Source of the DNA: Waddliaceae bacterium
Lineage (GTDB): Bacteria > Chlamydiota > Chlamydiia > Chlamydiales > Waddliaceae
Length of the DNA stretch: 64,000 nucleotides
Assembly (NCBI GenBank): GCA_963724325.1
Contig: CAVRUH010000007.1
Coordinates: 160,001-224,000, forward strand
Direction: 5' to 3'
Of this stretch, positions 25,547 to 29,666 are shown piece by piece (position 1 is the first letter of the stretch; each line of letters begins with the position of its first letter). Position numbers and translations under genes: made by a program. The notes under the pieces are model-generated. The model ran no database searches. It was not told the origin of the DNA and saw nothing but the letters and a program-made list of their open reading frames with translations.

Positions 25547-25690
25547 ATGAATAAAGTAAATATAAAAAATAAAAAGGTCAATCAATTGATTGTTAGTTTT
25601 TCGTCGTCTGTAAAATCAATAAGCTATCTTCAGTTGAAAGAAGCCGATGACCTCCGATCATGGGACCCGGCCAATTTTATGCTTGCATAA
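25547..25690 (+). CDS. Small ORF (47 aa)
   Basis: GGAGAGG RBS; MNKVNIKNKKVNQLIVSFSSSVKSISYLQLKEADDLRSWDPANFMLA. Confidence 0.45.
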   Translation: MNKVNIKNKKVNQLIVSFSSSVKSISYLQLKEADDLRSWDPANFMLA

Positions 25691-25763
25691 AATTCAAGAA
25701 ACGTGTACCATTCTATTAACTTTGCAGAATATTGCCAAAGTGAAACTCATTTAGGAGAATGAA

Positions 25764-25895
25764 ATGAATACAATACAATTTGATTATGGAGCGCGGTTAA
25801 TCCCTGTGCAATCCAATCGTTATCTCAATTCTTTGTCAGCGTCTGTTTCCTCCATTCATCATCTTTCCCATCATCACGAGCATCCAGCTCATTAA
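25764..25895 (+). CDS. His-rich small ORF (43 aa), candidate leader peptide
   Basis: AGGAG RBS 6 nt upstream; MNTIQFDYGARLIPVQSNRYLNSLSASVSSIHHLSHHHEHPAH. Confidence 0.6.
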   Translation: MNTIQFDYGARLIPVQSNRYLNSLSASVSSIHHLSHHHEHPAH

Positions 25896-26051
25896 TAGTT
25901 CCCTGTAAATTTTTATTAAAATTCAGGATTAGATTGAGTCATTTAGAGGCTTCCATCTCATTCAGAATCAAAACATATTTTAGATAAATTTATTAACGAT
26001 TCACCTGTTCACTAGTTTATGTGGAAGGTGGAAATAATTTGAGGATTTTTT

Positions 26052-26711
26052 ATGAAACCAAAATCAATTGGCATTATTGGCGGAGCTGGCCCTTTGGCAG
26101 GAGCTTTGTTGCTTGAACGTATACTTATCCTTTCGGGAAGTGAATATGGGTGTTATAAAGATGCAGATTTTCCAGAAGTAATTCTTCTTAGTTTTCCTTT
26201 TTCGGAAATGTTGACTCCTGAAAGAGACGTCTTGCAAATTGCGAAGAGAGCTGAGTGAGTGTTTAAATCGATTACGTAAAAATGGCGCTGCTGTTCTAGC
26301 TATAGCTTGCAATACACTGCACGCATTTTTAGAGGAGAATGAAGATTTGTCAGATCTCATACACCTGCCGCGAGTGGTAGCAGAGGAGATTCCTGCATCA
26401 GAGGTACCATTGGTCCTTTGCACCTCAACATCTGTTCAATTTGGGGTACATAAACAGTTTTTCCCTTGCGTGTATCCAGATTCAAAGACTCAGTTGCAGG
26501 TGGATGGGATCATTGACCGAGTTCTAAAGGGAGAAATCAAATTGTCGATGAGTTGTTGACGATTCTTCGGGCTCAGGAGGCACGTACAGTTGTATTGGGA
26601 TGTACCGAATTATCCCTTTTTACGAAAAGTTTATCTGTAAGTGATCTGATAATCATAGATCCGTTAGAGGTTGCAGCAAAAAAAGTATTAGAAAAAAGTT
26701 TTTTAAAATAA
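26052..26711 (+). pseudogene. Asp/Glu (PLP-independent) racemase split by two frameshifts
   Basis: IGIIGGAGPLAG / IACNTLH / VLGCTELS..IIDPLEV lie in successive shifted frames, with breaks near 26240 and 26535. Confidence 0.85.
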
Positions 26712-26723
26712 TAGGAGTTAATT

Positions 26724-27737
26724 GTGTTTTCAATTGTAGAAAAATCAGAAATGTCAACTTTCCCTGCCACAATGCAGGAAGAATTCGTTTCTATTAAGCT
26801 CTTTAAGGAACCGTGTTCTCCAGATATGGTGGTTGAGGAGATAGCAAGCATTAAAGGTCCAGTGGATGTTTATTGCTGGTATGAAGGGGTCTCTGGTCTT
26901 CCGATAGCTGGCGCCAAATTTATGAAGCAGAATATTTTGGAGCCTCTTGCTAAACAAAAGGTAGATGTAAAATTATGTCTTTATTCACTTCGAGGGTGGG
27001 ACTTTAAAGAAGGCATTTCAAACATGCCGGTTTTAACGACTTTGGGAGAGGCGATTAATCGCATCAATACGAAGGTTATTGAGTGTTTTTACTCATCCTC
27101 ATTTTTTCGGTATTGTGCCGATGTGTCAGATAAGGTTGCTCTTTATGAATATTTAAATAAGGAGTTACCCAAAAAGGTGCGACTCATCAAACATTCAGAA
27201 GGTCGAGAGCCATGCGGCATATCGATAGGGAAATTTTTTGAGGAGAGAGTGTCATTATTTGATTGCATCAACGAGATGGATGTCTGTAAATCTTACTCAT
27301 TGATGCAGTACATCGAGGGTTATTACCTGATTCAAGAATCAATTAAGAGGGGATTAGAGCAGGGACGAAGGCAAATTGAAATTGCTTTTGTACTTCCCAA
27401 TGATGAAGGTGAATATTATTTAGAGCTTCCGGATGAGATTGAAAGAATGCTTAAATTGGATTTCGGTGCAAAACTTACAAATATCAAGGTCAACATTACT
27501 TTTAGATTTTTTAAGTACAAAAATAGTCTAAAAGCTAGGCCATATAACGACCAATGGGGACAAAAGGTAGAAGCCGAAGAAATCGGCGCCTTATCTACCA
27601 AAATGCCCTCAAAAATTAATTTAAAAGGAGAATTTAAAGATGAATGTTTCAATTTTTGTTTCTATGCTGTTTATCTTGCAGTTTATTTATTGGGCTGTGG
27701 GAAGACGGTCTTCAAAAAATTTGAGTGGCAAGGATGA
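26724..27737 (+). CDS. Orphan protein, possible TyrRS/CDPS-like HUP fold
   Basis: 337-aa ORF with AGGAG RBS; SYSLMQYIEGYYL resembles the TyrRS SYxLLQAYDF helix; C-terminus overlaps the next gene by 98 nt. Confidence 0.6.
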   Translation: MFSIVEKSEMSTFPATMQEEFVSIKLFKEPCSPDMVVEEIASIKGPVDVYCWYEGVSGLPIAGAKFMKQNILEPLAKQKVDVKLCLYSLRGWDFKEGISNMPVLTTLGEAINRINTKVIECFYSSSFFRYCADVSDKVALYEYLNKELPKKVRLIKHSEGREPCGISIGKFFEERVSLFDCINEMDVCKSYSLMQYIEGYYLIQESIKRGLEQGRRQIEIAFVLPNDEGEYYLELPDEIERMLKLDFGAKLTNIKVNITFRFFKYKNSLKARPYNDQWGQKVEAEEIGALSTKMPSKINLKGEFKDECFNFCFYAVYLAVYLLGCGKTVFKKFEWQG

Positions 27738-29016
27738 TTATTTCTTAGCTGGAAAAACTGTAAGGCTTTTTCCTTTGATGATGACATTTCTAGCTACACA
27801 AGTAGGTGGGGGACTAGTTCTTGGAGCCGCTGAAGAGGCCTATATATTTGGATGGCCAGTGCTATTATATCCTCTGGGATCTGCTCTTGGGCTTATGTTG
27901 CTTGGGTGCGGCATTGGTCGTAGATTAGCAGGTTTTCAAGTTTCCACTGTTTCGCAAATCTTTGAAGTGGTCTACGGATCGCCATTTTTAAGAAAAATAA
28001 CATCGATTTTATCGGTGATCGCTTTGTTCATGGTGCTTGTGGCGCAAATCATAGCCTCAAACAAGTTTTTGATTAGCATGGGGTTCAGCAATGTTCCTCT
28101 TTTCATTGTGTTTTGGGCAATTGTGATTATCTATACTGCGCAGGGAGGACTGAAAGCAGTGATCTCCACTGACATGGTTCAGGCAGCTTTCTTTTCGTTT
28201 ATTTTTCTGCTTTGTTTTGGATTTGTCCTTTATACAAATACTTCAATCGCATCAGTGGGATTGCCGCAATTGGAGCAATTTTCAGAGGTTTCTTCAAAAT
28301 TTTGTGGATGGCTTTTAATGCCCCTTCTTGTTGTAGTGATAGAACAAGATTATGCGCAACGTTGCTTTGCAGGTAATTCTCCCAAAATTGTAACCAAGGC
28401 CTCCTTCCTAGCTGGTATTTTCACCATGATTGTTTGTATTGTACCCGTTTTCTTTGGTGCCCTCGCAAATAGTATGAATCTCGAAATCCCTGCGGGAAGC
28501 AGCGTATTAATGGAAGTGATTGCAATAACCACAAATCCGTGGATTGCGGCACTTGTCGGATGTGCAGTGTTGGCTGCAATTATTTCAACAGCTACTTCCC
28601 TTATCAACGCCATTAGCTCGAATTTATCGAGTGACTTTAAATTAGCCGTTCTTGAACGTTTCGATACGATACGTATAGTGCAATGGACCACCTGTACTAT
28701 TTCGATCGCAGCCATATTTTTCGCATTCTATTTTGATAATATCGTTGATATGTTGATTCAAAGTTATGAGCTTTCGGTTAGCTGTATGTTTGTTCCCGTT
28801 CTTATTGCTTTGTTTAAGAAAAGAGGAAATTTTCTGGCGGCATGTATTGCTATGATATTTGGTGCTTTAGCATTTGTTTACTTTCGGATATGCCCTATAG
28901 AGTTTCCAAGAGAAATTGCGAGTATCTTGTTATCGTTCATGGGATATTTTTTGGGTGAAATGATCGCTAGGTACAGTGCAAGTAAGATCAAGTCGGTTGA
29001 AAGAGCAGTTTTATGA
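27640..29016 (+). CDS. Sodium:solute symporter (SSS family)
   Basis: DDYFLAGK, ATQVGGG, YTAQGGLKAVISTD, QRCFA, AAIISTATS; many TM helices. Confidence 0.92.
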   Translation: MNVSIFVSMLFILQFIYWAVGRRSSKNLSGKDDYFLAGKTVRLFPLMMTFLATQVGGGLVLGAAEEAYIFGWPVLLYPLGSALGLMLLGCGIGRRLAGFQVSTVSQIFEVVYGSPFLRKITSILSVIALFMVLVAQIIASNKFLISMGFSNVPLFIVFWAIVIIYTAQGGLKAVISTDMVQAAFFSFIFLLCFGFVLYTNTSIASVGLPQLEQFSEVSSKFCGWLLMPLLVVVIEQDYAQRCFAGNSPKIVTKASFLAGIFTMIVCIVPVFFGALANSMNLEIPAGSSVLMEVIAITTNPWIAALVGCAVLAAIISTATSLINAISSNLSSDFKLAVLERFDTIRIVQWTTCTISIAAIFFAFYFDNIVDMLIQSYELSVSCMFVPVLIALFKKRGNFLAACIAMIFGALAFVYFRICPIEFPREIASILLSFMGYFLGEMIARYSASKIKSVERAVL

Positions 29017-29666
29017 AAAGTAGAATTGCAACAATCGCGGAGTTGCAGCAAATTAGGTGCTGTGAAAATGGAGAGCTTCTTGTGAGTTTGACTGACGAAT
29101 GCCCTGATATCATTTGTGAGTATCGCAGAAAAGATTCTGACCAGAACAAAGTTTTGGTCAGAAAATCTGTTTGTAAAAGGCTGCAAAAGGTGCAAAGCAA
29201 GCTTTGTGCTTACGATTCTCAACTGAGACTTTTGGTTGTAGAGGGATACCGGAGCCCTGTTTATCAGGAGTCTTACTATTTGAAAGAACTTCTCACTCAA
29301 TATAAGGAAGAGCCTGACTTGGACTTTGAGGCCCTTTTGGAGAGGGTGCATCAATTAGTCGCCCTTCCAAGTGTTGCCGGGCACCCCACCGGTGGAGCTA
29401 TTGATTTATCAATTGTGCGTGGTGAAGATGAATTGGATATGGGAGGGAGAATTGCAGACTTCAGTATTCCAGCAATGCTTCCAACGCATTCACCATTTAT
29501 CACCCCGGAGCAAGCAAAATGGCGCTTTCAGCTTCATGATTTAATGGTTGATGAAGGTTTTGCGCCATTTTATGGAGAGTGGTGGCACTTTTCCTATGGA
29601 GATCGTGAATGGGCTGCATTTTATGGCATGCAAGAAGCATTTTACACTTCAATTTTATTGTGTTAA
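29013..29666 (+). CDS. D-Ala-D-Ala dipeptidase-like (VanX/DdpX, peptidase M15)
   Basis: EGYRS, GHPTGGAIDL, DMG, GEWWHFSYGD. Confidence 0.9.
   Translation: MKSRIATIAELQQIRCCENGELLVSLTDECPDIICEYRRKDSDQNKVLVRKSVCKRLQKVQSKLCAYDSQLRLLVVEGYRSPVYQESYYLKELLTQYKEEPDLDFEALLERVHQLVALPSVAGHPTGGAIDLSIVRGEDELDMGGRIADFSIPAMLPTHSPFITPEQAKWRFQLHDLMVDEGFAPFYGEWWHFSYGDREWAAFYGMQEAFYTSILLC

Follow-up and report, generated by a model that had tools for sequence, protein, structure and literature searches.

A histidine-linked chlamydial operon and an undescribed enzyme family with a predicted aminoacyl-tRNA synthetase-like fold

Leader-peptide attenuators, such as hisL, tnaC and the actinobacterial poly-Cys leaders, have in common a short open reading frame (ORF) with its own Shine-Dalgarno (SD) sequence and a run of codons for one amino acid. 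In chlamydiae, the trpRBA operon of Chlamydia trachomatis joins amino-acid salvage by an auxotroph to codon-dependent stalling (PMC7755916, accessible sections). Among enzymes, the tRNA-dependent cyclodipeptide synthases (CDPSs; AlbC and the XYP-type) are stand-alone Rossmann/CP1 domains that resemble those of aminoacyl-tRNA synthetases (aaRSs), with the ATP motifs and the anticodon domain missing. Here we describe an operon with likenesses to all of these systems in a 64,000-nucleotide stretch of a Waddliaceae bacterium (Chlamydiota; assembly GCA_963724325.1, contig CAVRUH010000007.1, positions 160,001 to 224,000, forward strand), hereafter the window, which lies in a genome of 2.37 Mb that is 85% complete (G000). 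The operon consists of a His-rich leader ORF followed by genes for a racemase, an unannotated protein (hereafter the orphan), a sodium:solute symporter (SSS) and a VanX-like peptidase. It is real, conserved and linked to histidine, and its orphan belongs to an undescribed enzyme family with a predicted aaRS-like fold.

The histidine leader and the operon

The features of the operon, in window coordinates, are as follows.

25753..25757, + strand: SD sequence AGGAG of the leader ORF; similar SD sequences precede most of 25 leaders
25764..25895, + strand: His-rich leader gene of 43 codons, with 7 His among the last 14, just before the stop; candidate His-tRNA sensor
25836..25935, + strand: candidate Rho loading site, a pyrimidine-rich tract (63% pyrimidine, C>G) that covers the His run and the stop
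25877..25891, + strand: small pause-type hairpin of 4-6 bp spanning the final codons of the leader, with a weak U tract
26052..26711, + strand: racemase of the two-Cys Asp/Glu family (PF01177 on two pieces), with frameshifts near 26237 and 26540
26724..27624, + strand: orphan enzyme of ~299 aa, predicted to fold like a class-I aaRS (TyrRS/CDPS-like); the assembled ORF runs to 27737 (337 aa)
27640..29016, + strand: SSS (PF00474, E 3e-23)
29013..29666, + strand: VanX-like M15 zinc peptidase (PF01427, E 1.5e-14)
25547..25690, + strand: 47-codon ORF outside the racemase, probably no gene; no Pfam match below E 0.1

The leader ORF, which was missed in the preliminary description of this region, is the main clue to the operon. 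The DNA around its start (25738-25770) matches that upstream in the related loci L175, L007, L163 and L194. Short ORFs with at least six His among the last 14 codons numbered 0 among 11,629 in G000, where this leader is itself uncounted because the downstream gene is split. A His leader was found in 36 of 82 distinct orphan loci (one false case removed), in 30 of the 41 loci that pair racemase and orphan and have 1.3 kb or more of upstream sequence, and in none of 99 control loci; given that the orphan loci were seeded by the near clade and that many are short, these counts are biased and the kin among them are not independent. The apparent leader of L161 was rejected, as it lies antisense inside a HisRS gene. 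In the family tree, a quick one with many open forks, His leaders are spread over several branches, and a Coxiellaceae locus is among those that have one. Tandem His leaders precede the racemase in L010 (5830, 6115) and L180 (3332, 3501), and a near-perfect inverted repeat of ~190 nt, resembling a miniature inverted-repeat transposable element, lies between leader and racemase in L001 (2124-2463) and L013 (6009-6325); the L013 orphan is also split by a transposase.

Two further features recur at the leader end. The hairpin was predicted in 18 of 25 leaders (-4.7 to -7.7 kcal/mol), with 90% of cells paired and three of five pairs changed on both sides, a pattern confounded by coding constraint and kinship; the U tract that follows is weak (2-6 of 8). 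Within 100 nt around the leader stop, the pyrimidine content was 55-76% in the 25 leaders and at least 70% in 14 of them; around G000 gene ends the mean was 47%, and 0 of 1239 reached 70%. Predicted promoters (19 vs. 14.1 ± 3.3) and terminators (6 vs. 3.7 ± 2.1) did not exceed chance. The leader region had no match in Rfam, His_leader (RF00514) included, and a riboswitch or known RNA family was rejected on this ground. A ribosomally synthesized and post-translationally modified peptide precursor was rejected as well, for leader length varies from 15 to 60 aa and the N-terminus is poorly conserved.

Among described leaders, the poly-Cys leaders share the layout of a run that directly precedes the stop codon, with a terminator-free pyrimidine tract behind it, and Rho-dependent attenuation has been proposed for them, weakly, in the portion of PMC1262725 that is accessible. 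The SD sequestration described for poly-Cys leaders in the available part of 10.1101/834739 has no counterpart in the His leader, and classical hisL differs by its terminator/antiterminator pair, which was not seen for the His leader. The trpRBA operon serves another amino acid with other enzymes and another regulatory logic, as far as the accessible sections of PMC7755916 go. Stalling on the terminal His run would leave the ribosome on top of the C-rich part of the pyrimidine tract, so that induction by shortage is predicted. The leader probably confers shortage-induced regulation on a salvage module.

The preliminary description also reported four co-oriented, closely coupled genes, and coordinates and Pfam matches bear this out for the racemase, orphan, SSS and M15 peptidase. 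It placed the first of them at 25547; the racemase begins at 26052 instead, and the ORF at 25547 is not conserved, with no tblastn match in any other fetched locus. The two frameshifts that break the racemase are likely assembly artefacts: the gene is intact in close relatives such as L002, where racemase (6260-6925) and orphan (6938-7918) occur with SSS and VanX-like genes, and the rho gene of the same assembly lies in at least four frames (G000:C5:229301-230550), which indicates uncorrected indels. None of the eight sequencing runs examined covers the racemase breaks. An independent contig (one contig, depth 3.1), otherwise identical over 262 nt, has one base fewer at 27591. With that base dropped, the orphan ORF stops at the TAA at 27622-27624 after ~299 aa, its 98-nt overlap with the SSS gene is gone and an SD sequence precedes the SSS start. 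Residues beyond ~300 also have low pLDDT in the orphan model. The 337-aa length first given for the orphan, together with the overlap, is thus probably an assembly indel.

Histidine links across related loci

Within 4.5 kb of the orphan, the 82 distinct loci held a racemase in 50 cases, an SSS in 23, a VanX-like peptidase in 11, a HisRS in nine and a His ammonia-lyase in six, while racemase, SSS and VanX-like peptidase were all near the orphan in nine. The expected co-occurrence with all three neighbours therefore held for the racemase and only in part for the SSS and the M15 peptidase; the racemase is the orphan's sole steady partner. One of the nine HisRS loci is on a 1.47-Mb IMG/VR contig, where the orphan is divergent from HisRS (L161:3386-5795). 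In P0188 and P0197 the orphan is fused to HisRS, a fusion that is degenerate in L034, and the HisRS of the cluster is an extra copy in five of five genomes. Further fusions, in different genomes, join the orphan to a RimJ-type GNAT or to a VanX-like peptidase (L075, L199).

Other loci add histidine enzymes. L189 has SSS, racemase, an orphan::HisRS fusion, ammonia-lyase and MFS together, and L021 has the orphan, a methyltransferase, two HisRS, a Nudix protein and a GNAT. On a 6-kb, putatively viral GVMAG contig (L162:485-4553), an ammonia-lyase, the orphan and a beta-Ala-His dipeptidase (PepD) stand in a row, with lyase and dipeptidase both above curated cut-offs. A second arrangement, found in 17 of the 82 loci, combines the orphan with a GNAT, a Tam-like methyltransferase and an MHS symporter, without racemase or leader. 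Most neighbouring transporters are of importer families (SSS, APC, MHS, DAACS, polar-amino-acid ABC and aromatic permease). HisB is missing in 29 of 30 carrier genomes, and HisD in the 85% complete G000. Given the leader, the extra HisRS, the neighbouring ammonia-lyase, HisD-like and dipeptidase genes and the missing HisB, histidine is almost certainly the theme of the operon, as judged from these sequence contexts.

Several loci show related gene contents. In L077 (2305-9650), HisZ-like, HisD-like and HisRS genes with an aromatic permease are divergent from orphan, racemase and ammonia-lyase, and no HisG was seen in the locus. In L111-L126, a divergent His ammonia-lyase subclass occurs with an extra HisRS, Tam-like methyltransferases and MHS or ABC transporters, often without the orphan, and L023 has a HisRS::lyase fusion.

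The racemase probably acts on His. Its motifs ACNTLH and LGCTE are found in intact relatives, both of them in 30 of 34 listed copies (same-locus repeats included), and the window pieces carry both Cys motifs. The described His racemases CntK and HisR have the DapF fold, whereas that of the operon is of the Asp/Glu-racemase family. The window SSS, which scores below the PutP and PanF cut-offs, probably imports His or a His peptide. The M15 peptidase has intact-looking H-x6-D and EWWH motifs; against VanX sensu stricto (NF033115) it reaches 40 bits, with the cut-off at 320. A vanC-like cell-wall cassette was rejected because there is no ligase.

Of the 30 best racemase loci, 19 contain the orphan; of the 11 without it, five still have the leader, one being too short to judge. 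Leader and racemase without orphan are seen in L213, L218, L225 and L226. The existence of this unit indicates that the orphan is accessory to it, and salvage fits it better than a supply of D-His to the orphan. In an auxotroph, a racemase that is switched on when His runs short would most plausibly serve D-to-L salvage, with the importers and the D-specific peptidase as its suppliers. The preliminary description had offered D-amino-acid/dipeptide salvage as the simpler alternative to biosynthesis; salvage is now favoured, and the amino acid, which had gone unseen, is histidine.

Fold, pocket and distribution of the orphan

The orphan had no Pfam family at E <= 1, PF16715 included, no NCBIfam match, no match among PDB sequences and no plasmid match. 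Its relatives comprised 100 close proteins among 997 candidates, the named ones being chlamydial, and the family had 215 representatives at E <= 0.001. Its distribution is patchy: of 400 genomes sampled across the phylum, 38 carry it, and it also occurs in three gammaproteobacterial contigs and two IMG/VR contigs. Extra viral scans gave no further members, six of eight motif matches being due to chance, and a BFVD fold search gave no clear homologue. In the ESM Atlas the best match (0.84) was at lead level only. A search for longer proteins with the orphan found nothing, which is weak evidence, since it missed the known 770-aa fusions. The literature searched, mostly without subscription papers, held no description of the orphan family or of a His leader in Chlamydiota. 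Canonical CDPSs are far rarer than the orphan family, with one among 200 genomes sampled from the phylum (L070, G072:C9:3251-3787). Near-clade orphan C-termini (P0015, P0065, P0103, P0108) carry the tail motif RD-x-IH-x2-N after a low-complexity linker; the motif is doubled in P0103 and absent from the window protein.

The TyrRS/CDPS-like fold that had been proposed by eye finds moderate support in two AlphaFold models and in four fold searches of the PDB, with no link between sequence profiles. The models of the window orphan (pLDDT 90.0) and of a distant member (pLDDT 96.2) were compared with known structures. With Foldseek, the former had three matches at E <= 0.001, all TyrRS at TM about 0.3, and the latter had none at this cut-off. 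With VIA, the window model matched TyrRS 2pid (Z 8.8, rmsd 4.0, 183 aligned), tied with CDPSs 5mlq (Z 8.1) and 5mlp (Z 8.0), and in the distant member CDPSs 5ocd (Z 8.2) and 5mlp (Z 8.1) tied with TyrRS 1n3l (Z 7.8); the CDPS matches had an rmsd of 4.4 over 177-184 aligned residues. For comparison, the accessible text of PMC3105412 gives scores of 10.7-7.3 for AlbC against TyrRS/TrpRS. The isonitrile synthase PvcA was rejected as a relative (Z only 5.6-5.9). The ordered part of the orphan model ends near residue 290, a 273-aa homologue is a single domain and an anticodon-binding domain is absent.

Near-invariant residues in the family are W52, G55, W92, S158, D186, Y191, S192, Q195, E198, N226, E228, Y232, R272, P273 and Y274. 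The orphan motifs quoted in the preliminary description were recovered, and HIGH and KMSKS are indeed missing (0 of 135 alignment rows each). The helix Y-x3-Q-x2-E is present in 133 of 135 rows, and Q195 in 134. Its spacing (Y191-x3-Q195-x2-E198) equals that of TyrRS Y151-x3-Q155-x2-D158 in the accessible text of PMC3105412 and in the TyrRS of G000 itself. By spacing match, D227-E228 stands at the position of the TyrRS D-Q (E228 vs. Q173), and W52 at that of the TyrRS pocket Gly (G34), so that the side-chain site would shrink. D227 would occupy the position of the ribose-binding Asp of TyrRS, and RPY may stand at the KMSKS position. Compared with class Ic aaRSs (TyrRS, TrpRS), the orphan would, on this spacing, share the Y-x3-Q-x2-acid helix and have D-E in place of D-Q, while it has neither HIGH, KMSKS nor anticodon domain and carries Trp at the pocket Gly. 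G000 encodes its own TyrRS, TrpRS and HisRS, and a class-I replacement for HisRS was rejected because G000 and five of five tested genomes carry an ordinary HisRS. The TrpRS of G000 (G000:C1:538776-539627, L069) looks eukaryote/archaeal-type and adjoins an aromatic amino-acid permease-like ORF.

The comparison with CDPSs removes the orphan from that family, to which its fold had been likened: the catalytic Ser is missing and Gln stands in place of Glu. CDPS G35 and catalytic S37, which follow the first strand in the accessible text of PMC3105412, are missing from the orphan, where the strand ends W-Y-x-G and no Ser, Cys or Thr column is conserved at 50% or more before residue 121. The CDPS helix Y178-x3-E182-x-P184 is also missing, with Y-x3-Q-x2-E instead. 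The long basic alpha-4 helix of CDPSs is not apparent in the orphan, in which the equivalent segment has 26 residues (mean 4.2 K/R vs. 2.4 D/E) and a helix of nine residues. The orphan is about 75 residues longer than CDPSs, with an insertion and the RPY loop. Compared with the motifs named in PMC11610942, the fungal RCDPSs have a catalytic Cys and DDXXE, whereas the orphan has N-D-E and no invariant Cys. Because HIGH and KMSKS are absent and the CDPS Ser and Glu are missing, the orphan appears to belong to neither family and to resemble an aminoacyl-binding, ATP-independent offshoot of the aaRSs.

Around the operon, a nucleoside 2-deoxyribosyltransferase-like gene (24957-25382, - strand) is divergent from it and had no tblastn match in 36 related loci. 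Two tandem paralogous ORFs of 261 and 287 aa, 53% identical (29698-31551, - strand), are convergent on it and had no Pfam match above cut-off. Further away are, to judge by their motifs, two copies of an IS481-like element (32124-33604 and 48186-49419, the second split) and two phosphoglucomutase-like copies (37159-38194, broken, and 41166-42806).

Candidate functions of the orphan

We tentatively propose that the orphan may be an ATP-independent D-His-tRNA(His) deacylase within a His-shortage salvage operon, since a pocket of TyrRS type that lacks the ATP motifs, and is often linked to HisRS, fits such a dedicated activity. When charged tRNA-His is scarce, a ribosome halted at the His codons would shield the C-rich Rho site, and transcription would read through. 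The SSS would then import His and D-His peptides, the M15 peptidase would free D-His and the two-Cys racemase would equilibrate D- and L-His. The racemase would also create D-His, on which D-aminoacyl-tRNA deacylase (DTD) of bacteria would act poorly once it is attached to C73 tRNAs such as tRNA-His. The orphan would keep the TyrRS alpha-amino pocket (Y191, Q195, E228) and the side-chain acid E198, both ATP motifs being lost; the invariant E228 would hydrolyse the aminoacyl ester, and freed D-His would return to the racemase. The orphan could also strip a His look-alike from tRNA-His.

HisRS can charge D-His at a low rate, and eukaryotic tRNA-His has A73. The tRNA-His of G000 has C73, as bacterial tRNA-His does, and bacterial DTD disfavours pyrimidine-73 tRNAs, C73 as much as U73, according to the accessible text of PMC6097841. 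Eukaryotic DTD prefers pyrimidines in the same portion of that paper, so that, with A73, the DTD gap would exist in amoebal hosts too. The proposed clearing of a D-aminoacyl-tRNA is shared with DTD and trans-editing factors, whose fold is unrelated to that of the orphan. Put more broadly, and still as a guess rather than an expectation, a D-His-tRNA(His) proofreader would add to the TyrRS fold a third branch, next to TyrRS/TrpRS and CDPSs, that fills the discriminator-base blind spot of DTD. Chlamydiae associated with amoebae, Legionellales and giant viruses would have this branch in common, and its control would lie with a Rho-type His attenuator.

A number of observations weigh against D-His-tRNA editing in a shortage-induced salvage operon. 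For the leader, neither a terminator/antiterminator pair in its region nor a terminator-like site between it and the racemase was found, and SD sequestration by the His run was rejected, the largest change being 0.12 among 15 leaders. The accessible sections of PMC7755916 report the opposite direction of regulation for C. trachomatis, in which a stall at Trp codons favours termination further downstream. For the protein, the fold scores (Z 8-9, rmsd about 4 A) are near the tool's level for models without a clear match, hhalign of the orphan profile against 23 TyrRS and seven TrpRS was not significant, the residue register with TyrRS was set by spacing and secondary structure alone and no strongly basic tRNA-binding segment was found. 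For the gene context, a Bcr/CflA-type efflux MFS is near the orphan in two loci, the His ammonia-lyase neighbours consume His, and urocanase was found in none of five tested genomes with the His ammonia-lyase subclass. A simple substitute for DTD was rejected, since 27 of 37 carriers still have dtd; its retention is expected if the deacylase covers only the DTD gap at tRNA-His. Editing leaves unexplained the 17 loci with GNAT, methyltransferase and MHS symporter and no racemase or leader, as well as the VanX and GNAT fusions. Since these loci, the VanX fusion and the ammonia-lyase are unaccounted for, dipeptide synthesis and conjugate hydrolysis stay alive as rivals.

The main rival, dipeptide synthesis, is a somewhat unlikely account. 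The extra HisRS would supply His-tRNA, from which the orphan would pass the aminoacyl group on to free D- or L-His; GNAT and methyltransferase would tailor the resulting His dipeptide, linear or cyclic, VanX or PepD would recycle it and the leader would allow expression only when His-tRNA is plentiful. CDPSs tie with TyrRS as the top structural matches (Z 8.1-8.2), the distribution is patchy (38 of 400 genomes), tailoring-type neighbours vary and the HisRS copy is dedicated. The D-specific peptidase goes with the racemase, while the L-His dipeptidase goes with a racemase-free viral locus. Chlamydial stalling can terminate transcription, as the accessible sections of PMC7755916 report, and the hairpin lies inside the leader end. 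This account meets difficulty in the lack of a conserved Ser/Cys/Thr in the first-strand loop, in Q at the position of E182 and W at that of G35 and in the apparent lack of the long basic helix. Moreover, the hosts are His auxotrophs, the transporters are mostly importers, leader and racemase persist without the orphan and what follows the hairpin is a weak U tract (2-6 of 8).

It is unlikely, though consistent with the importers and a shortage-induced leader, that the orphan performs a catabolic first step by opening or unblocking an imported His conjugate (a cyclic or N-blocked His dipeptide), from which VanX or PepD would free His for the racemase and HisRS or for His ammonia-lyase. Non-homologous peptidases recur beside the orphan (VanX near it in 11 of 82 loci and fused to it in L075 and L199; PepD in the viral L162), and the order ammonia-lyase, orphan, PepD reads as a linear pathway. 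However, this would explain neither the HisRS fusion nor the viral loci that pair HisRS with the orphan but have no peptidase (L161, L191), no nucleophile or metal site is evident and 70 of 82 loci, many of them short, have no such peptidase nearby.

Immunity to a HisRS inhibitor that mimics His-adenylate is improbable. The orphan would bind or cleave the inhibitor in an adenylate-shaped pocket, the RimJ/RimL-type GNAT, Nudix protein, extra HisRS and efflux MFS would be parallel defences and the leader would sense HisRS inhibition. The gene content of L021 (orphan, methyltransferase, two HisRS, Nudix, GNAT) fits this, as does the inferred D227 at the ribose-binding Asp position, and the GNAT belongs to Acetyltransf_3, the family of MccE and RimL. 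The racemase, the commonest partner, would however have no clear role, importers dominate and we know of no HisRS inhibitor that mimics His-adenylate.

A generic Rossmannoid match, with an orphan function inside the His regulon that is unrelated to aminoacyl chemistry, is likewise improbable: the Z scores (8-9) lie close to those that the tool gives when a model has no clear match, TM is about 0.3 and the second model has no Foldseek match at E <= 0.001, but class-I aaRSs and CDPSs fill most top ranks in both models and the orphan repeats four TyrRS pocket motifs in the same order and at matching distances. The orphan may be a deacylase, a dipeptide synthase or a hydrolase of His conjugates.

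The orphan stands for an enzyme family of more than 200 clusters that has no annotation so far; its fold is predicted to derive from that of aaRSs, its polar pocket is well conserved, and gene context in bacteria and giant-virus contigs ties it to one amino acid in a testable way. With the leader, Chlamydiota have a candidate for amino-acid attenuation mediated by the ribosome. If the orphan makes His dipeptides, chlamydiae and giant viruses would possess a new tRNA-dependent biosynthetic chemistry. If it instead edits D-His-tRNA(His), it would be, to our knowledge, the first class-I-fold trans-editing factor, and it would explain how cells with a His racemase are protected where DTD handles the tRNA poorly.

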